From IMG/VR virus record IMGVR_UViG_3300041964_000148: a stretch of DNA of 64,000 nt; one strand, 5' to 3'. The notes under the pieces are model-generated. The model ran no database searches. It saw nothing but the letters and a program-made list of their open reading frames with translations, and was not told the DNA's origin. Shown piece after piece: positions 7,417-46,867 of this stretch; positions within the stretch are counted from its first letter, which is position 1; each line of letters opens with the position of its first letter. The DNA is from a virus (taxonomy: Duplodnaviria; Caudoviricetes). Position numbers and translations under genes: made by a program.

Positions 7417-9249
7417 TTAACCAGCGATCGCTCTCATCTGCCGAGCCTCTTCCAGCTCCTGTTTTAATTGCTCAATTTCCCGTTCCTTTTGAGCTAACTG
7501 CGCCTCAATTGCCTGTGCCTGCTCAGAAAGAAACTGTTCATTCAGGATTTTATTCTCGTTCTCCTTCCTGAGTTCTTCATTTTCTGCCTGTAACTCACTC
7601 ACCTGTAATCGCAGAAGAGTATTTAGATTTTGTACATTTTCTACCTCCTCCCTGGAAATTTTTTCTGGCTTCTCCCCTGTCTGCTTTCTAGGCTTTGGGT
7701 TGAAACGGAACTTGTATTTGTCCTCCCAGTTCTCCTCGGTGGAAACTGATTTGATCGTTTCAGAGATCGCCTTTTTGGTCAGCTCTGGCGCAGATTCAAT
7801 AACGAGTTTCTTCGCCTCCAAAATTTCCTCTTCCTCAGCGTCTCTGAAGGTATCCATCCTTCTCAACTCCAAGGCTGCCGCATCGGACATCCCCTTGACC
7901 TTCACCTGAATATCCTGATCTACTAGGGGTAGTAACTCACGCCGCTCTTGTTCGGCATTAGCCTTTTCCCTCGCACTGTTGGGACGATAAGGGAATCCTT
8001 CCTCGTCGTGAAGGCGCCGACACATTTGCTCAAAAGTGCCGTATTCTTGGGACTTCCGGCGATTATCATTCTGGAAAACAACAAACTTGAGTTCCCACAG
8101 GTAGTCTGTCACCGCTTCGGAAAAAGGCTGGCTTATTTCGATCAACTTAACGGCGATCGCCCGACACTTCCTCTCATGTTCTGAGGTAAGGAAAGTCCAG
8201 TCCTCGCCCTCTTCCCCTTCTTCCTCTGTTACCTCTGCAATAGAGTCATCCAACTTCTTACAGTCACTATAAGAAGTTCCATCACTTTCCTCTTCCTCTG
8301 TTTCAGGATCTGTCTCAGGAGCGGCTTCCTCAACTGCTGCCGGTTGTGCAACTACTTCTGTTACTTGTAATTTGCTCACCACAGGGGAGCGTGGCGTAAA
8401 TTGAAGTAAGTTACTTTTCGTTGGTTCTGGAGGCGTAAAGATCACTTCAATGGGGGCAAAATCATCTTCCTCTTGATCTTCTTCTCGATCCTCTTCCGGA
8501 TCATCTAAGAAATCTTCTAAAAACCGTCCTTCTAGCCCTAACTCTCCCTCTATTTCCGGATATTCTAAGAAGTCTTCTTCGAGTTCTTCTAGGGGTTCTT
8601 CTGGGAGCAACTCTTCAACAAAATCAGTAATTTCTGAGATTAGTTCCGGCATCGACACTTCGTTTGTCGCCTCAGCCTCTTCAAGAGGCTCAGCCCCAGC
8701 CCCCTGAAAAGGGGCAATTTCATCTTCTACTTCTAGCAATTTATCCAAAAGGGCTTGAGCCTCAGCCTGATCTTTTACAAACTTCGTTGATTGAATAGGA
8801 TCTTGCCCTTTAATGTCAAAGCGCATTCCACTGGCAGTTACCGAGGCGATCGCCTTTACTCCCCTAGCCTCTACTGTTTGTTTTTTGGTGGGACGTAGGA
8901 ACCGATCCTCAACCCACTTCTTATTCCAATTCCCACTAGGAGAAATAACGTTGCAGTAAGCTTTACCTTTATAAAAATCATCTACAGGATCATGCTGAAT
9001 CACTTCAGCAAAAAAACCTGTGTGGTCGCCCCGATCATCGAAAATACTAAGGATTTCCCCAATTTTAAGTTTCTCAACTTCCTTTAAGGAAACTGAAGGT
9101 ACCCAGTCTACTGTTCGCAGATCTTTACTGTAATTAGTGAGTTCACAACGAATTTGGTCTTTTTTCCCTTTTTCGATTACACGAGCATAATAGCCCTTAT
9201 ATTGCCCCTTAAGAACGCGATTTATAGGACTTGCTGTAGTTGTAGACAT
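7417..9249 (-). CDS. large acidic protein with C-terminal coiled coil
   Basis: 610-aa ORF; E/D-rich middle; heptad C-terminus. Confidence 0.75.
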   Translation of the reverse strand: MSTTTASPINRVLKGQYKGYYARVIEKGKKDQIRCELTNYSKDLRTVDWVPSVSLKEVEKLKIGEILSIFDDRGDHTGFFAEVIQHDPVDDFYKGKAYCNVISPSGNWNKKWVEDRFLRPTKKQTVEARGVKAIASVTASGMRFDIKGQDPIQSTKFVKDQAEAQALLDKLLEVEDEIAPFQGAGAEPLEEAEATNEVSMPELISEITDFVEELLPEEPLEELEEDFLEYPEIEGELGLEGRFLEDFLDDPEEDREEDQEEDDFAPIEVIFTPPEPTKSNLLQFTPRSPVVSKLQVTEVVAQPAAVEEAAPETDPETEEEESDGTSYSDCKKLDDSIAEVTEEEGEEGEDWTFLTSEHERKCRAIAVKLIEISQPFSEAVTDYLWELKFVVFQNDNRRKSQEYGTFEQMCRRLHDEEGFPYRPNSAREKANAEQERRELLPLVDQDIQVKVKGMSDAAALELRRMDTFRDAEEEEILEAKKLVIESAPELTKKAISETIKSVSTEENWEDKYKFRFNPKPRKQTGEKPEKISREEVENVQNLNTLLRLQVSELQAENEELRKENENKILNEQFLSEQAQAIEAQLAQKEREIEQLKQELEEARQMRAIAG

Positions 9250-32752: not shown

Positions 32753-33283
32753 ATGAATTGGTCAATAAAGAACACTGTTGCTGAATCCCTTCGGCTACCA
32801 GTAGGAGAAAGGTTTTCCCCTGGAGGCTTCAGATGTGAGGATATGCCCGATATGACAGAAGAAGCGGCAGAATACCTAATTAAAAAGGATTGGGAAGGTG
32901 AAGTTAGAACACAATCAGAAATAATAGTTATTGCTCGATTATTAGGAGCATTTGAAGGATATATCGATTTCTTGTTAGTCCCAAACCCTGAAACTATTAC
33001 ACCTCAACCAAAGAGTAGTAAAGATCCTCTTGGGAGCGTAATGGGAGAAAAAAGACAGTTACTGGCGCATCAAATTATTAAAAGATGGCAGCCTTTATTT
33101 GGCTCAGGATGCTTTCCAGATGCCAGGTTTATGGCTGATCTAATTGACGAATATATTCGGATTGATGAACAGGGCTTACTAAGTGAGATTCTTACTGGTA
33201 GAGCCTTTGAAGATGTCCCGAATTGGTTGATTCTACACCACCTCTGCGAAGTGGCACGAGTTTACTACTCAAAACACAGGTAA
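32753..33283 (+). CDS. hypothetical protein
   Basis: GTTATAAT promoter, AAAGCAAATC leader, downstream terminator. Confidence 0.7.
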   Translation: MNWSIKNTVAESLRLPVGERFSPGGFRCEDMPDMTEEAAEYLIKKDWEGEVRTQSEIIVIARLLGAFEGYIDFLLVPNPETITPQPKSSKDPLGSVMGEKRQLLAHQIIKRWQPLFGSGCFPDARFMADLIDEYIRIDEQGLLSEILTGRAFEDVPNWLILHHLCEVARVYYSKHR

Positions 33284-39193: not shown

Positions 39194-39232
39194 AAAAAAA
39201 GCCCCCACCAGGATTTCCTGGTGGGGCTTTTT
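39194..39232. terminator. bidirectional terminator closing the ribozyme operon
   Basis: A7-GCCCCCACCAGGA-TT-TCCTGGTGGGGC-T5. Confidence 0.85.
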
Positions 39233-40251: not shown

Positions 40252-40291
40252 GGGTTTTGCTTGATCACGGAGAACCGTGACGATAGTTTTT

Positions 40292-40344
40292 GCTCCCTCA
40301 CTATTTTTCACCCAGGCTTGGGACTGGCGTCGGCTAGTTTAAGC
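40292..40344 (-). ncRNA. twister ribozyme (P1 type)
   Basis: GCU-UAA-ACUA-GC-CGACG-CCAG-UCCCAAGC-CUGG-GUGAAAAA-UAGU-GAGGG-AGC; predicted cut U40341/A40340. Confidence 0.88.
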
Positions 40345-40384
40345 GGCTCCCCCAAGGGGAGCCTAACTTTCATTAAACTGAGAT

Positions 40385-40873
40385 TTACTTTGATAACTTA
40401 TTTACCCATTGAAGCTGTGGGTTTTGCTCTCTAAAGGCAGAATCCCATTTATATCGCCCCATTTCTGGATGGTATGGAAAGTCATTTTCCCACCACACAG
40501 AGATACATTTTTTTAGCGATTCTAAGGTTATCATTCCTTCTACTGATGGAACACTATACCCAGAAGCCGCAGATGACTGTATTTGGGAACAAGGTATTGC
40601 TTTGAAATTAATTCCCCGCTCTAAACATCGCGAGATAATTTCCCCTAAAGCAAATATGGAATCTCTTCCAAAATCTAAAGATAGGCAATTTTGAGATTCT
40701 TGATATCGAACCTGAGAAGTGTAACTAAGAAGACTGCTATCTGGTAACTGTGTCGCAGTTCCATGATAATCGTCGTCTTCGTCTATTTTGGGAGCAAACG
40801 AGGGAAATACCTGAAATACTGCTTCTTTCGCTAGCTCTGAATTTTCTAAGAATAAAAATCTGGCTGAAAACAT
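40385..40873 (-). CDS. hypothetical protein
   Basis: GCAAAACCATG leader; flanked by ribozymes. Confidence 0.7.
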   Translation of the reverse strand: MFSARFLFLENSELAKEAVFQVFPSFAPKIDEDDDYHGTATQLPDSSLLSYTSQVRYQESQNCLSLDFGRDSIFALGEIISRCLERGINFKAIPCSQIQSSAASGYSVPSVEGMITLESLKKCISVWWENDFPYHPEMGRYKWDSAFREQNPQLQWVNKLSK

Positions 40874-40893
40874 GGTTTTGCATTATAAATTTT

Positions 40894-40945
40894 GCTCCCT
40901 CTGCATTTTTATCCAGGCTGGGGACTGGCATTGGCTGCATTAAGC
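40894..40945 (-). ncRNA. twister ribozyme (P1 type)
   Basis: GCU-UAA-UGCA-GC-CAAUG-CCAG-UCCCCAGC-CUGG-AUAAAAA-UGCA-GAGGG-AGC, close to the canonical rice twister; predicted cut U40942/A40941. Confidence 0.92.
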
Positions 40946-40970
40946 GGCTCCCAAGGGAGAGCCTTTACAT

Positions 40971-41996
40971 TTATATGAGCGCTTCGTGGGCGATCGCATT
41001 AATGTAAGCGATCGCATCCTCGTAGGTTGGGCGAGATGGGTACTCGTGAACCCCTATTTTTAGCTCAAACAGGGAAACTGGTTCCCCGAACGGGTCATTT
41101 GGGTTCTGCACCCTCGGACTTTTGCTTGTCGAGTGGCAGTATCGATCAAATAGGATGTATTTTTCTAACGTCCCTCCTTGGAGGAAGCGCTCAACGTCTT
41201 CCTCAAATGTTCGGTCTTTTGGAATAGAGTATTCTACTCCTTGAGTCCAAAAAGACTTGGACTGAACAAGGGGCATTGCTAACTTTACATGGCGTTTGCC
41301 AAGTTCAGTTGCCGCTAAATCCCAGAAAACTGCCAAGGCTTGTAGTAACTCTTCCGAGAGATCTTCTCGGTCTAGATTTAAACTGGACAACGGATGCCCA
41401 ATAACTTCATGATTGCCGTATCCTGTCCAGCGACAGTAATCCAACAAAAATTCCTCAGGGTTTTCGGGGACAACCCATCCCCATTTAATCGCTAGAAGAA
41501 GACCTTCTGCGATCGCCCATCCTACCGAATTGTTGGGGCAGTGAAGCAATCGCTGCGTCAGTCGCCCCTCTTGGGCGGCTTCAAGACTGTCATTGTTCTG
41601 GTAGCTTGTCCAGCACCAGGCCCAAGCTACAAGAGAACTTCGTAAATGTGCATGGGCGAAGTTGGGTGTATAGTTTAGGGCAATTACATCGAATATTGTT
41701 GTCCAGTAGCCCCACTCTGCTATTTCCGCCAACTTCCCCCATCCCATTTGGTTATGGGGATCGGGCAGATCGTATATCGGCTTCTCGAATATCGCGTATT
41801 CGCTTATTCCAGTTGCAATTCGTGCAATTTCTCGCACCTTTTCCGGATGTTCGTCGTCGCAGCAGGCAAGCAGATATCTTGCCGCGAATGACAAGTCACT
41901 TCCGTCTTCCAACGCTGCTATCTTCTCGATCTCTTCAATATGGCGATTGTTGATAATTGAGGCGATCATTCGTTCGATTTTTTCTTCAGATTGCAT
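40971..41996 (-). CDS. hypothetical protein
   Basis: 341-aa ORF; GCAAAACCATG leader. Confidence 0.75.
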   Translation of the reverse strand: MQSEEKIERMIASIINNRHIEEIEKIAALEDGSDLSFAARYLLACCDDEHPEKVREIARIATGISEYAIFEKPIYDLPDPHNQMGWGKLAEIAEWGYWTTIFDVIALNYTPNFAHAHLRSSLVAWAWCWTSYQNNDSLEAAQEGRLTQRLLHCPNNSVGWAIAEGLLLAIKWGWVVPENPEEFLLDYCRWTGYGNHEVIGHPLSSLNLDREDLSEELLQALAVFWDLAATELGKRHVKLAMPLVQSKSFWTQGVEYSIPKDRTFEEDVERFLQGGTLEKYILFDRYCHSTSKSPRVQNPNDPFGEPVSLFELKIGVHEYPSRPTYEDAIAYINAIAHEALI

Positions 41997-42035
41997 GGTT
42001 TTGCTTGATCACGGAGAACCGTGACGATAGTTTTT

Positions 42036-42113: not shown

Positions 42114-42695
42114 TTAGTTGTAAATAGAAGAGATATCCAAAATCTCATCTATCTTTTCCTGGTCTAATCCGATAATTTCGCGTTGTTTATAATAGCGGAA
42201 ATTATCATTTTCAGACATGAATTGGATGCGTTCAGCAATAGGGAGGCGAATGATTCGCTCATACGTTACTGGTAGTAGTATGTAGAAATCGTCTGAACTG
42301 AACTCAGGGTCATACCCTAAATCATCTTCGTCTGAAGAGATCCAACACGCTAGCCCAGCTTCCATTTGAAGTTTTTTTTCTACCTCGAAAACTACTTCAG
42401 ATATTCCAGCCTTTCCAGATGAAAAACAATGCCAGTCATAAGGCGCGTTATCTGATTTGTATAGGTTCGCGAACCTGTTGTCTGGAATGTCTTCGTTGCA
42501 GTGAAAAGATGCTGCTATGCCTTGGCTTCCCATCATTCCATTCCAGTGGAGCTGAATGTTTTGAACCACAATTTTTCGATTGAACAAATCCAGCATGAGC
42601 TGAATTTCTTGGTCGGTTACGAAATGGCGCTTTATTTGACGCATTTGGTGATGTGCTTCGTATTTGTACTCGTACATTAGAATTTTCCCTTTCAT
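42114..42695 (-). CDS. hypothetical protein
   Basis: Start moved to MKGKIL after AGCAAAACC. Confidence 0.7.
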   Translation of the reverse strand: MKGKILMYEYKYEAHHQMRQIKRHFVTDQEIQLMLDLFNRKIVVQNIQLHWNGMMGSQGIAASFHCNEDIPDNRFANLYKSDNAPYDWHCFSSGKAGISEVVFEVEKKLQMEAGLACWISSDEDDLGYDPEFSSDDFYILLPVTYERIIRLPIAERIQFMSENDNFRYYKQREIIGLDQEKIDEILDISSIYN

Positions 42696-42710
42696 GGTTT
42701 TGCTGATTTT

Positions 42711-42764
42711 CTCAATTGGTTGGCTATCCACACCCGCCGCGAGGAGGCTTGAGTATTTGGGTGC
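42711..42764 (-). ncRNA. minimal HDV-like ribozyme (no P4)
   Basis: GCACCC-AAAUA-CUCAA-GCC-UCCUCGC-GGC-GGGUGU-GG-AUAGCCAA-CCAA-UUGAG; predicted cut 5' of G42764. Confidence 0.85.
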
Positions 42765-42808
42765 ATTGCCCCCGAAGGGGCAGGGGAGGATTTAATCCTC
42801 TAAGAACA

Positions 42809-42982
42809 CTAAGGAGGAGTGTCATTTTCTTCGCTTTTCCACCTCTCCTCTAAGAAGTTTTCGCGCTCTAGCTCTTCATTCTTCTGTCCGGCATACCAGA
42901 CCATTAATTGGTTGAGTTTCCATGCGTTTTCAGCATTGGGGTTAGCTTTGAAGGCTTCAAAAGCTTTATCTAGTTGGTTCAT
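42809..42982 (-). CDS. small hypothetical protein
   Basis: MNQLDKAFEAF.. after an AAAGG RBS, downstream of the twister. Confidence 0.65.
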   Translation of the reverse strand: MNQLDKAFEAFKANPNAENAWKLNQLMVWYAGQKNEELERENFLEERWKSEENDTPP

Positions 42983-43001
42983 TGATTTACCTTTGTAAAT
43001 T

Positions 43002-43057
43002 ACACCTCTCTGCGTTAGGGGCTGGAGACCCTTAGCTTTCGCTAGGCGCATTAGTAC
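43002..43057 (-). ncRNA. twister ribozyme with P3 hairpin
   Basis: GUAC-UAA-UGCGCC-UAGC-GAAA-GCUA-AGGG-UCUCCAGC-CCCU-AA-CGCA-GAGAG-GUGU; pseudoknot covaries to CUC/GAG; predicted cut U43053/A43052. Confidence 0.8.
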
Positions 43058-43106
43058 GCCCCCAAAGGGGCGGGGGAGGATTTAATCCTCTAGATTTACG
43101 CTATTA

Positions 43107-43385
43107 TCAACTAGCCAATTTAACATTCCATTGACTTCCCATACCCATGTCATACTGACGACGGCACGAGACTGGAAACTTCTCTCCATCTATTTCTGTA
43201 TGTCCTTTGTAGTCTTCTCCTCCTCCGTAAGCGTCAGAAAAAGTATTGGTACGCTCAAGATGAAAGACTAAATCATAGCGAGTACTCTCTGGAATAGTTC
43301 TAATTTTGTCAAGCAGTGATGGAGTCCGGATGTGTACTCCGTCAGTTACCGCTTTTCTCATTTGTTCCATTGTCCACTGTGTCAT
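43107..43385 (-). CDS. hypothetical protein
   Basis: 92-aa ORF between ribozymes; AAGGA RBS. Confidence 0.7.
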   Translation of the reverse strand: MTQWTMEQMRKAVTDGVHIRTPSLLDKIRTIPESTRYDLVFHLERTNTFSDAYGGGEDYKGHTEIDGEKFPVSCRRQYDMGMGSQWNVKLAS

Positions 43386-43417
43386 TTGTTTTTCCTTGTC
43401 ATGGTTTTGCTGATTTT

Positions 43418-43471
43418 CTCAATTAGTTGTATATCCACACCCGCCACGAGGAGGCTTGAGTATTTGGGTGC
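43418..43471 (-). ncRNA. minimal HDV-like ribozyme (no P4)
   Basis: GCACCC-AAAUA-CUCAA-GCC-UCCUCGU-GGC-GGGUGU-GG-AUAUACAA-CUAA-UUGAG; predicted cut 5' of G43471. Confidence 0.88.
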
Positions 43472-43506
43472 ATGGGCGATAACTCAAGAGAGCGATCGCC
43501 TGACTA

Positions 43507-44334
43507 TTAGTCCTTTAAATAAATTGCGTTAGGTGGTACGGGGGTTAGTACTTCCTCCGTCTCGTAATCCCAAGGTTCTTGACTTTTTCGCTTATGAACG
43601 AAAGAGACCAAAAACTTTTGATTACCCTCTTCTTTAAGAAGTTCTGAACGCATATCAACGTTGATTCTAGGAGCATCATTTAGCTCCCATTGATTGTCAG
43701 GAACCTCTAGTAAATCAACAAGCATATTGGGTTTGTTGATTAACCATTTTTCAATACTCTCGAAGTCGTCAAGGCTGCAACCGTAGTAGCCCTGTAGAGT
43801 TAAGTTGAGCGTTTTATCTACGCTTATTCCGCTCCATCCACTGTCATAGTAGTATGGGACAGATTCTAACCCTTTTTCAAGGATTGATGTTGCTGCAAAT
43901 TGAATTGCTTCTTCACAAGAGTGAAACTCTTTGCCTAGTAATTGCTGAAGAGTTGCTTGGAGATCCTTTAAAGGTTTTCCAAAAACTACGTCTTTAGCAG
44001 CAAAGACTACTTCATTGCGAAACCGTTCATCGCTAGCAGCTAATGTTACTGCCTCTGCGGCTGTGACAAGAATGCATCTTCCGTCCCAGTCTTCATCTTC
44101 GTCTCGTGGAACGTCGTACCCATCTTTGGCGAGGAATACCAGCGCTTCATCGGGAATGAGGATTTCATAAATTCCGAAGTTATCCCATCCTTCTGGAAGG
44201 TATGGGTAGGCGAACCCAACCTTTCCCTCTAATAAGAAAGAGAGGTGATTGCGATCGCTTCCGTGGTAACTGTCTCCTGGTTTTACAGGGGAAAAGTTTA
44301 TTCCACTTCCTAAGCTGTGATAGAAAATTGTCAT
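43507..44334 (-). CDS. hypothetical protein
   Basis: 275-aa ORF; AAAGCAAAACCAATG leader. Confidence 0.75.
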   Translation of the reverse strand: MTIFYHSLGSGINFSPVKPGDSYHGSDRNHLSFLLEGKVGFAYPYLPEGWDNFGIYEILIPDEALVFLAKDGYDVPRDEDEDWDGRCILVTAAEAVTLAASDERFRNEVVFAAKDVVFGKPLKDLQATLQQLLGKEFHSCEEAIQFAATSILEKGLESVPYYYDSGWSGISVDKTLNLTLQGYYGCSLDDFESIEKWLINKPNMLVDLLEVPDNQWELNDAPRINVDMRSELLKEEGNQKFLVSFVHKRKSQEPWDYETEEVLTPVPPNAIYLKD

Positions 44335-44354
44335 TGGTTTTGCTTTAATTAAAT

Positions 44355-44414
44355 GTACCCTTCTGCGTTTATTCAGACTTAGGACTGACAGCTAATAGCT
44401 GGTCGCATTAGTAC
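44355..44414 (-). ncRNA. twister ribozyme with P3 hairpin
   Basis: GUAC-UAA-UGCG-AC-CAGCU-AUU-AGCUG-UCAG-UCCUAAGU-CUGA-AUAAA-CGCA-GAAGG-GUAC; both pseudoknots covary (CCU/AGG, AC/GU); predicted cut U44410/A44409. Confidence 0.9.
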
Positions 44415-44443
44415 GCCCCCGAAGGGGCATTAGTTTATCTGTA

Positions 44444-45115
44444 TCAAGAAACGGCTTCAAAGATTGAAGCTAAATTCTTGAAAGTTTTGAAATAAAATGT
44501 GCCGTATTTTACCCATTGATGGTAGTTACCATCATGAATGGGCGTATGCTCACTTGAGCGAGCATCATACACAACTGGATTACTTGGAAGTGTTCGTATC
44601 TTTTGCTCCATCCCTTCAATTAGAAGGGTTGAAGAGATTTTATCCCACCACAGCACCCATAAGTCATCCCAAGCTCGTCGCCCGTCTGCTATCTGCATCT
44701 CTGGATAAAGACACAAGAAAACAAACTCAGGCATTAGTTCTTCCCAACTATAGGGAATTCCTTGTCGGCGATGGTCTTTTTTCTCAACCATTTTTGGCTG
44801 TTTTTTCATGAATTCTGCGATCACTGTCGGTTGCAGTAACGGGACAGGGATACAAGCGTAAGCTTCCCCTTCTCCTATAGATATTCCGGCTAAGTCGTAG
44901 TAGGCGTTGTCTCCTGCATCTTCGTAGACCAGGGAACAAGCCCCTGACTCATAAGCAGTAGCCCAAAGCAAGTTGGCGTAGAAAAGGAGGGTTTCATTTC
45001 CCTCGTGTGCCACCGCCTTGGCTTTGAACTTGTTACTTAGATTGATTGCCATTTTTGCTCTGGTAGAAGCATCTGGCATGATTTCAGTTTTGGCATTGAT
45101 TTGTTGATTCGTCAT
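44444..45115 (-). CDS. hypothetical protein
   Basis: Start moved to MTNQQ, downstream of the ribozyme. Confidence 0.7.
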   Translation of the reverse strand: MTNQQINAKTEIMPDASTRAKMAINLSNKFKAKAVAHEGNETLLFYANLLWATAYESGACSLVYEDAGDNAYYDLAGISIGEGEAYACIPVPLLQPTVIAEFMKKQPKMVEKKDHRRQGIPYSWEELMPEFVFLCLYPEMQIADGRRAWDDLWVLWWDKISSTLLIEGMEQKIRTLPSNPVVYDARSSEHTPIHDGNYHQWVKYGTFYFKTFKNLASIFEAVS

Positions 45116-45141
45116 TGTTTTTACTGATGGTTTTGCTTTAT

Positions 45142-45194
45142 GTTCAATTGGTTGGTTATCCGCACCCGCCGCGTGGAGGCTTGAACTTGGGTGC
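45142..45194 (-). ncRNA. minimal HDV-like ribozyme (no P4)
   Basis: GCACCC-AA-GUUCAA-GCC-UCCACGC-GGC-GGGUGC-GG-AUAACCAA-CCAA-UUGAAC; P2 covaries relative to the other two copies; predicted cut 5' of G45194. Confidence 0.87.
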
Positions 45195-45219
45195 ATTGCC
45201 CCCGAAGGGGCGGGAGGAA

Positions 45220-45591
45220 TTAAAGCCTCCAAGTCGTGTCGCGTCCCTGTCTGGGATCTTTTCCGCAACCGTTGTTCTGGGTTGCGGCGACTCTATCTCT
45301 TTCAGCTTGCTTCCGGTTTAGTTCTTCAACTCGCTCAAGTTTTACAAGCTGCTCACGCAATTTCTTGAGTTGAGGCTCTAACTCTTTCTGGAGAGCGATC
45401 GCTGTCCGCTGTTGGGCTCGCAGCGAATCTATCTCCGCTTGAATTGCAGCAAGAACCTCTGGAGGTTTATTCCGCTTCTTGGCTCCAAGAGGCTGGAGTT
45501 TCCTGCTACAATCCCATCGCTGGGATGTAGCAATATCAAGTTGCTGTTCTAGTGAGGCAATTTCTTGTCTCAATTTGTTAATGTCAGTCAT
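45220..45591 (-). CDS. coiled-coil hypothetical protein
   Basis: TAATG-coupled to the upstream gene. Confidence 0.7.
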   Translation of the reverse strand: MTDINKLRQEIASLEQQLDIATSQRWDCSRKLQPLGAKKRNKPPEVLAAIQAEIDSLRAQQRTAIALQKELEPQLKKLREQLVKLERVEELNRKQAERDRVAATQNNGCGKDPRQGRDTTWRL

Positions 45592-46052: not shown

Positions 46053-46082
46053 ATTGTAACATTTGTGTTACACCACCGTCAA
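46053..46082 (-). promoter_or_regulatory. sigma-70 promoter with overlapping palindromic operator
   Basis: TTGACG-N18-TACAAT with TG extension; palindrome TGTAACA-N4-TGTTACA at 46055..46072. Confidence 0.7.
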
Positions 46083-46156: not shown

Positions 46157-46867
46157 TCACAGTCCTCTGGGAGTGGGGCGATAGTGGGCGATCGCACCCT
46201 CTAGTTGCTCAACCAATCTTTCCCTCACACCTGATTGGCTCAGTACTTTGCAATCCTTCCCGTACCGGATGATTTCCCGGATGAACCAGAAGGTACTTGT
46301 AATCCTGCGGGTGACGACCTTCACCTTGCCGTCCCAAGAGTCAAGCCGATCCTTCTCCCCCTCCCTGAAGGCGTGAGCCAGCCCTCTGTATAATTCAAAC
46401 TGCACAGGAATCGTTGCCATGCCTTCTTCCCGCCAAGTGCTGGCATCCAGCGGGAAGAAGGCATCAGCGTTAGTTACGCGGTCAAACCGGAAGCACCAGT
46501 TATGGCGCAGTGGCTCTAAGTCCTGGTTATCCTCGGTTTCATCGCACCAGCATTCGAGGTAGTAGTAGCCCTCTCTAAGCACTCGCTCTCCGTAGCGAAC
46601 GGTGAAGACAAAGGGTTTGCCCGCTGCATCTGCGTAGGAGAAACGAAAGGGAGTTTTGTTGCACAACAGTTCTAAAATCTTCCTCGCCTGGGGTGAGTCT
46701 AGGCTGGGAGGTATGCTTGTTTCGACTGCTTCGTGTGCGATCGCCTTGTAGAAAGCCGTCTGATTTCCTTCTTCGCCCCACAGGTATCCGTGTTTGGCTG
46801 CGATCACCTTGAATTGCCGTTGCTCCTCTTCAGTAACACTGAGTTGGACTGTATTTCGCTTGCTCAT
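46157..46867 (-). CDS. WYL-domain transcriptional regulator (RHH-like N-terminus, cyanobacterial type)
   Basis: QLSV.E.E...F..IA..HG..WG..GN; F.FSY.DA.G; YLECWCDETE; NW.FRFDR; FWF.REI.RYG..C.V. Confidence 0.85.
   Translation of the reverse strand: MSKRNTVQLSVTEEEQRQFKVIAAKHGYLWGEEGNQTAFYKAIAHEAVETSIPPSLDSPQARKILELLCNKTPFRFSYADAAGKPFVFTVRYGERVLREGYYYLECWCDETEDNQDLEPLRHNWCFRFDRVTNADAFFPLDASTWREEGMATIPVQFELYRGLAHAFREGEKDRLDSWDGKVKVVTRRITSTFWFIREIIRYGKDCKVLSQSGVRERLVEQLEGAIAHYRPTPRGL

Follow-up and report, generated by a model that had tools for sequence, protein, structure and literature searches.

The stretch of DNA analysed here, 64,000 nucleotides (nt) of the viral record IMGVR_UViG_3300041964_000148 (Duplodnaviria; Caudoviricetes) and referred to throughout as the window, holds a unit of ~6.9 kb in which ten minus-strand genes are bracketed by a promoter-like site and an intrinsic terminator. 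Ribozymes occupy eight of the nine gene junctions, the exception being that between the first two genes, which overlap without a spacer. Their order along the unit is hepatitis delta virus (HDV)-like copy 3, a twister, HDV-like copy 2, a variant twister, HDV-like copy 1 and three twisters. The three HDV-like copies are the subject of this study. On the comparative evidence set out below, we consider it highly probable that they are genuine minimal HDV-like ribozymes that lack P4 and process a polycistronic mRNA. The octamer GCGATCGC, a cyanobacterial signature, occurs 68 times in the window against 0.6 expected, and by this signature the window is from a large cyanobacterial phage. The same DNA is found on contigs of ~240 kb, all of them from biocrust or soil DNA samples.

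Structure of the three HDV-like elements

Coordinates refer to the whole 64-kb window, and all three elements lie on the minus strand (Table 1). Each measures 53-54 nt and has the complete P4-less HDV-like layout: a P1 of 6 base pairs (bp), a P2 of 5-6 bp that crosses P1 to create a nested double pseudoknot, a 3-bp P3, an L3 of the form U-CC-NCGN, a GG able to form P1.1 with the CC of L3, and an 8-nt L4 linker in place of P4. The 5' half of copy 1 reads P1 GCACCC, J1/2 AAAUA, P2 CUCAA, P3 GCC and L3 UCCUCGC, and its 3' half P3' GGC, P1' GGGUGU, P1.1 GG, L4 AUAGCCAA, J4/2 CCAA and P2' UUGAG. Changes in copy 2 relative to copy 1 are limited to L3 position 7, two L4 positions and the N of CNAA, and its linker and J4/2 are AUAUACAA and CUAA. 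Copy 3, with linker AUAACCAA and J4/2 CCAA, closes P1 with a G-C pair rather than the G.U pair of copies 1 and 2, and its P2 is GUUCAA/UUGAAC. The differences of copies 2 and 3 from copy 1 fall at positions that vary throughout the family or are paired changes. The P2 of copies 1 and 2 can alternatively be read as seven positions with one A.A mismatch. The L4 linkers of copies 1 to 3 lie at 42720-42727, 43427-43434 and 45152-45159, respectively.

Table 1. Positions in the window of the HDV-like elements, their hairpins and leaders, the twister elements and the ends of the transcription unit
Feature	Coordinates	Strand	Details
Promoter-like site, unit head	46053..46082	-	TTGACG, 17-18 nt spacer, TACAAT; consensus match only, no evidence of function
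Double hairpin before copy 3	45198..45230	-	GCCCC-UUCG-GGGGC stem ending 3 nt before cut
HDV-like ribozyme copy 3	45142..45194	-	G1 45194; putative catalytic C 45151; predicted cut 45195/45194; P2 6 bp; model R1 68.8 bits
Leader after copy 3 and AUG (45115) of 223-aa gene (44444-45115)	45113..45141	-
Twister-P1 between copies 3 and 2	44355..44414	-	Rfam
Hairpin before copy 2	43475..43500	-	Contains GCGATCGC site; ends 3 nt before cut; -17.4 kcal/mol
HDV-like ribozyme copy 2	43418..43471	-	G1 43471; putative catalytic C 43426; predicted cut 43472/43471; model R1 55.5 bits
Leader after copy 2, before 92-aa gene (43107-43385; AUG 43385)	43383..43417	-
Variant twister-like element	~43005-43060	-	Read by eye; resembles twister L126:1554
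Double hairpin before copy 1	42768..42800	-	GAGGAU..AUCCUC stem, then GCCCC-UUCG-GGGGC stem ending 3 nt before cut
HDV-like ribozyme copy 1	42711..42764	-	G1 42764; putative catalytic C 42719; predicted cut 42765/42764; model R1 55.6 bits
A-rich leader AAAAUCAGCAAAACC and AUG of 193-aa gene (42114-42695), after copy 1	42693..42710	-
Twister-P1	42035-42089	-	Rfam
Twister-P1	40893-40946	-	Rfam
Twister-P1	40291-40345	-	Rfam
Intrinsic terminator, unit end	39194..39227	-	GC-rich stem then U run

The window has three occurrences of an 18-nt core of the element where chance would give 0.02, and a covariance model built from 45 unrelated copies retrieves exactly these three elements, at 53-69 bits and E values of ~1e-12 to 1e-15. 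The next best match of the model in the window (33216-33255, 13.6 bits) is without P3 and L3 and was rejected as noise. With Rfam at a loose threshold, the HDV-F-prausnitzii model (RF02682) aligned to copy 2 in the expected register at 19 bits, against a cut-off of 44; matches to PhotoRC-I, at 15-19 bits against a cut-off of 45, proved to be merely the upstream hairpins. All three copies stand in the sense orientation in intergenic spacers between co-oriented genes, 15-32 nt ahead of start codons.

Conservation and covariation across the family

Public collections were searched with a pattern that fixes P3, L3, the GG, part of the linker and the C, and leaves P1 and P2 free. The search returned 109 further loci, 75 of them viral and 34 in bacterial genome assemblies, mostly of Bacillota. 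A perfect 6-bp P1 is present in 82 of 87 unique copies, as compared with 15% when partners are shuffled, and 49 different P1 strands are represented. Among the 82 perfect copies the closing pair of P1 is G.U in 69, G-C in eight and A-U in five. J4/2 conforms to CNRA in 78 of the 87, and L4 is strongly conserved, reading ATAACCAA in 63 of them though its two middle bases were free in the pattern.

The original prediction had warned that a P1 of 6 bp could place the cut site off by one. A 6-bp P1 turns out to be normal in the family and G1.U to be its commonest closing pair, so the cut most likely falls between U(-1) and G1 and is not shifted. Position -1, read in 84 copies, is U in 60, C in 17, A in seven and never G. 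The alternative of a 7-bp P1 with a shifted cut was rejected on two grounds, the A found at -1 in those seven copies and the need for both G's after P1 in forming P1.1.

The case for P2 comes from a gapless alignment of 45 copies in whose selection P2 had no role. Its partners pair in 95.2% of cells versus 66.9% after shuffling, a level reached by none of 500 shuffles, and pairing drops to ~32-46% when one partner is slid by 1-3 columns. Double changes occur at all seven P2 pairs, with up to four pair types. The putative catalytic C is invariant: all 75 viral loci carry C, and the pattern with A, G or U at that position found no viral match. A single P3 variant was seen, ACC/GGU, at position 8395 of a related phage locus (L122). 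The P4-less, theta-like layout that had been proposed from the window, with its 8-nt linker, its CNAA carrying the putative catalytic C and its covarying P2, was therefore borne out for every sequence feature that could be tested.

Layout of the ribozyme-bearing junctions

Every copy has the end of a gene and a stable hairpin upstream of it. Between hairpin and G1 stand the three bases AAU in copies 1 and 3, whose hairpin is GCCCCUUCGGGGGC, and CAU in copy 2, whose hairpin measures 26 nt. The 45 nt upstream of copy 1 fold with -18.6 kcal/mol, and the double hairpin found there belongs to a repeat family (D4) common to the twister junctions. The GCCCC-UUCG-GGGGC hairpin stands ahead of both ribozyme classes. 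Each of the four twister-P1 elements, which match at 44-56 bits, below the Rfam cut-off of 67.2, with E values of ~1e-6 to 1e-10, lies directly behind a GC hairpin and ahead of a GCAAAACC leader, and GCAAAACC-AUG precedes every gene of the unit, the promoter-proximal one included.

The same arrangement is seen in the wider family. The 45 nt before the predicted cut fold at or below -10 kcal/mol in 63 of 89 unique loci, versus 19 of 89 controls drawn from 75 nt further upstream, and 0-5 nt, most often 2, separate the hairpin from the cut. In 50 of these 89 loci, P2 is followed at a distance of 5-35 nt by the start codon of an open reading frame of at least 40 amino acids (aa). ARAGORN found no tRNA in the whole 64-kb window, and no tRNA ends at the cut site of any of 119 copies of the family. 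The original prediction had attached the elements to mRNAs rather than tRNAs, with a protein gene plus a hairpin upstream, and this description holds at all three copies.

After copy 2 the GCAAAACC-AUG is duplicated (43385-43402, minus strand), which creates a frame of six codons, MTRKNK-stop, overlapping the real AUG of the 92-aa gene. It could be left over from a duplication of the module, or it could represent a small upstream frame.

Sister phages and exchange of ribozyme class

Related operons were reached through homologues of a conserved 123-aa gene of the unit (59-72% identity) and are named L120, L122 and L126. These sister operons contain five further HDV-like copies, at 53-59 bits, and five twisters. 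Within the lineage, P1 takes the forms GCACCC/GGGUGU, GCACUC/GAGUGU, GUACCU/GGGUAU and GCGAUC/GAUCGC, P3 the forms GCC/GGC and ACC/GGU, and P2 varies by paired changes. In one HDV-like copy (L122:10387-10439), P1 GCGAUC/GAUCGC is built from the cyanobacterial GCGATCGC palindrome.

The two ribozyme classes replace each other at orthologous positions. The gene family of 341 aa stands behind a twister in the window and behind an HDV-like ribozyme in L120, L122 and L126, and that of 327 aa stands behind a twister in three phages and behind an HDV-like ribozyme in L122. After the 123-aa gene, the junction holds an HDV-like ribozyme in the window and L122, and a twister in L120 and L126. Two unrelated folds that occupy one slot, behind the same hairpin and ahead of the same leader and genes, share only self-cleavage near their 5' end, and cleavage is therefore most likely the property under selection. 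Of all the evidence from these sequences, the class swap argues most strongly for selection on cleavage.

Homologues of the 223-aa gene at two further loci, L110 and L111, have neither an HDV-like nor a twister ribozyme before the gene. At L111 the homologue (46% identity), with no ribozyme before it, is preceded by a tRNA gene (1173-1245; ARAGORN tRNA-Tyr, anticodon ATA), which may represent tRNA-based cutting of the same kind of junction. One operon junction of L122 (9494-9716) has an intrinsic terminator and a long AT-rich spacer in place of a ribozyme.

Breakpoints between related strains were sought in metagenome contigs aligned at 80% likeness, in which some joints could be assembly chimeras at repeats. 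One joint (40338-40940) runs from twister to twister and removes one gene; another spans 40252-42033; a third (43071-45191) has 334 foreign bases in between; and a fourth leads from 45186 back to 42757, fusing copy 3 to copy 1. The long direct repeats found in this region, 93-97% identical, are the junctions themselves. Copy 2 and its hairpin are nearly identical to the HDV-like module at L120:3222, and the flanking genes differ. The pattern of joints at junction modules fits an exchange of cassettes through these modules.

Proposed function and alternative explanations

From the conserved layout and the exchange of ribozyme classes we infer that the elements cleave, and that cleavage affects RNA stability and translation. 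Each ribozyme would fold during transcription and cut its own 5' edge at U(-1)/G1. With the cut 2-3 nt past a very stable hairpin, the upstream cistron would end in this hairpin and a 2',3'-cyclic phosphate, and the downstream cistron would begin with a 5'-OH, the compact ribozyme pseudoknot, the A-rich GCAAAACC leader and the AUG. The polycistronic RNA would in this way be divided into units that are separately stable and separately translated, and the twisters would do the same job at the other junctions. Such ends should resist decay from either side and so give each cistron a lifetime and an access to translation of its own, as would be expected from what is known of bacterial RNA decay. 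The hairpin may, in addition, shield the ribozyme fold from the upstream coding sequence, as an upstream hairpin is known to do for the genomic HDV ribozyme.

Several points weigh against reading the three elements as ribozymes that process a polycistronic mRNA. A search of the window with Rfam gave nothing at the gathering score, and its HDV models, which include P4, stayed under their cut-offs. The G-C pair of copy 3 at the cleavage site is a minority state, found in 8 of the 82 copies with a perfect P1. In the alignment of 45 copies, P1 had been chosen for perfect pairing, which leaves only P2 unbiased there, and P3 and P1.1 are invariant, so that their pairing is consistent with the fold and lends it no support from covariation. 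Finally, the oligonucleotide list of the paper that described theta ribozymes contains no sequence of the 8-nt linker subtype.

A different account would accept the ribozymes as real and have them kept mainly at the DNA level, as homology blocks for an integron-like shuffling of cassettes, with RNA cleavage secondary. The strain contigs do join exactly at the junction modules, these are long direct repeats, and the modules of copy 2 and L120:3222 are near-identical despite their differing flanks. Homology alone, however, would not preserve compensatory changes in P1, P2 and P3 or an invariant catalytic C, it leaves unexplained why two unrelated folds occupy the same slots, and the joints themselves come from metagenome contigs, some possibly chimeric. 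As the principal reason for the conservation of the modules we consider this improbable, and it is compatible with, rather than exclusive of, RNA processing. A combination of the two is possible, on balance doubtful: the hairpin, ribozyme and leader would form a portable junction part of a cyanophage cassette system in which HDV-like and twister ribozymes are interchangeable, insulating each accessory gene at the RNA level and offering at the DNA level the homology for the gain, loss and reordering of cassettes. If this were true, the operon would be an integron-like array defined by ribozymes in place of attC sites.

Other readings concern the RNA itself. Internal cistrons released by two flanking ribozymes would carry a 5'-OH and a 2',3'-cyclic phosphate, ends that self-cleaving ribozymes are known to leave and an RtcB-type ligase to join, and could be closed into circular mRNAs. 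This expected end chemistry is all that speaks for circles; the cistrons have ordinary stop codons and leaders, and a strong 3' hairpin better fits the protection of a linear end, which makes circularization very unlikely. We give as little credence to a structured RNA with an HDV-like fold that does not cleave and serves as a protein-binding site or as a 5' structure enhancing translation. The HDV-like ribozymes of R2 and L1Tc have been proposed to aid translation besides cleaving (PMC6765202), but a non-cleaving RNA would not account for the invariance of the catalytic C and the retention of G1.U and CNRA, nor for the replacement of the HDV-like fold at orthologous junctions by twister, with which it shares self-cleavage only. 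Nothing was found in favour of theta ribozymes that trim tRNAs or of chance repeats. The window without a tRNA, the 119 cut sites without one and the chance expectation of 0.02 refute both, and we regard their likelihood as practically nil. Processing of a polycistronic mRNA by self-cleavage is thus the explanation we favour.

For most self-cleaving ribozymes of bacteria and phages no function has been established, and the locus, together with its sister phages, amounts to a natural experiment in which the proposed processing of operon RNA becomes testable on defined junctions. The orphan class of isolated theta ribozymes, those not beside a tRNA, would gain a testable function, and HDV-like ribozymes would join the phage gene neighbourhoods of the twister type. 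The elements also offer compact natural insulator parts of ~54 nt for the engineering of gene expression. Their closest engineered counterparts are insulators of the RiboJ type, in which a self-cleaving ribozyme placed before each cistron gives it a standard 5' end and makes it independent of the sequence upstream. RiboJ is engineered and based on a hammerhead, whereas the insulators of the window would be natural and drawn from two ribozyme classes.

Relation to published ribozymes

The window elements closely resemble the isolated theta ribozymes of Kienbeck et al. 2024 (PMC10879173). In that study, the cut site lay within 5 nt of a tRNA 3' end in 58% of theta occurrences, a feature that was not part of the descriptor, and 526 occurrences, or 41%, were not beside a tRNA. 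More than 96% of the latter were in sense with the nearest gene, and their function was given as unknown. More than 80% of all matches came from gut phages and only 12 from bacterial genomes, and in vitro self-cleavage was shown for four tRNA-associated examples. The supplements of the study split the ribozymes into descriptor fields, and a 6-bp P1 is common among them. The isolated theta ribozymes share with the window copies both the order of these fields (P1 of 6-7 bp, short J1/2, P2, P3, L3 U-CC-NCGN, P3', P1', GG, short L4, CNRA and P2') and their setting, non-coding DNA of tailed phages (Caudoviricetes), in which they lie on the sense strand. They come mostly from gut phages, whereas the window copies have a cyanobacterial signature and a biocrust or soil source, and copies 1 and 2 have a longer J1/2 and a shorter P2 than the published examples.

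The linker subtype is also on record. In the examined part of the isolated list (PMC10879173, Supplementary Data 2), GG, ATAACCAA and CCAA stand in succession at least 173 times and ATAGCCAA precedes CCAA at least 11 times, so that the linkers of copies 1 and 3 are present there letter for letter; the linker of copy 2 was not found in that part. The examined part of the tRNA-associated list contains neither GG, ATAACCAA and CCAA nor ATAGCCAA and CCAA, and most of the L4 linkers there have 5-7 nt (GTAACG and ATAACG are examples), fewer than the 8-nt linker of the window. The tRNA-associated theta ribozymes have the same catalytic core and P4-less architecture as the window copies but cut at a tRNA 3' end. 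The motif and the 8-nt linker subtype (AUAACCAA or AUAGCCAA) are therefore already published, and the role and the layout are not. For the suggestion, made in the original prediction, that theta-like ribozymes are here used for mRNA processing, this means that the processing itself has gained comparative support from the conserved layout and the twister swaps, and that the implied novelty was overstated, given the 41% of published theta ribozymes without a tRNA and the published linker. What the window adds in range is an extension of the subtype from gut phages to cyanophages of soil crusts.

For the twister and hammerhead ribozymes that the Breaker and Weinberg laboratories described in gene clusters of bacteria and phages, a role in processing polycistronic transcripts has been proposed (review, PMC6765202). 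The neighbourhoods of twister, hammerhead and RAGATH elements provide the same genomic context as the window, in whose operon twister-P1 is itself present, although twister and hammerhead are ribozyme classes other than HDV-like. At other loci of the HDV-like subtype with an 8-nt linker, RAGATH-16, RAGATH-36 and twister-P1 lie on the same strand; RAGATH-16 or RAGATH-36 was observed at L047:10860-10930, L077:213-284, L104:1698-1768 and L047:6689-6804, in loci of gut or rumen phages or of Clostridia. Published lists of the classes that share the twister/RAGATH context do not include HDV-like ribozymes. The name RAGATH-2-HDV is said to have been used for an HDV variant in the 2017 RAGATH supplement. 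A likeness to the proposed function exists in the retroelements R2 and L1Tc, whose HDV-like ribozymes cut at their own 5' edge, free the downstream coding RNA from a co-transcript and remain as its 5' end (PMC6765202). These are eukaryotic retroelements with full-size ribozymes that include P4, whereas the window element is without P4 and without a reverse transcriptase.

Other features of the operon and its source

The variant twister-like element between HDV-like copies 2 and 1 has GGGUCUCCAGCCCC where the core GUCCCAAGCC is usual, and it is missing from the Rfam matches even when these are listed up to E = 10. A variant like it, L126:1554-1611, reaches 44 bits, and the element of the window may thus be a conserved variant of twister.

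Matches to the source DNA were few. Megablast of 14 kb of the window against plasmid and phage collections found none, and no match to the window-specific pattern of ribozyme and leader was found in metagenome contigs. Searches for relatives of a WYL-domain protein in viral contigs and of a 145-aa protein in metagenome contigs found none, and exact matches to the 123-aa protein came only from the same strain, where the order of the genes was unchanged. For the ten genes of the operon, Pfam, PHROGs and PADLOC gave only marginal matches, all to the 123-aa gene, and Protein Atlas gave only weak leads for the proteins of the window. One cassette protein of 275 aa (43507-44334, minus strand) is without a Pfam or PHROG match; language-model features place it close to viral hypothetical proteins and to a cluster of AcrIF11-type ADP-ribosyltransferases (score 0.91, 152 shared features), a weak lead towards a role in anti-defence.

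Directly upstream of the operon lies the gene for the regulator with the WYL/WCX domain (46157-46867, minus strand), and an inverted repeat (TGTAACA-N4-TGTTACA) overlaps the promoter-like site of the unit.

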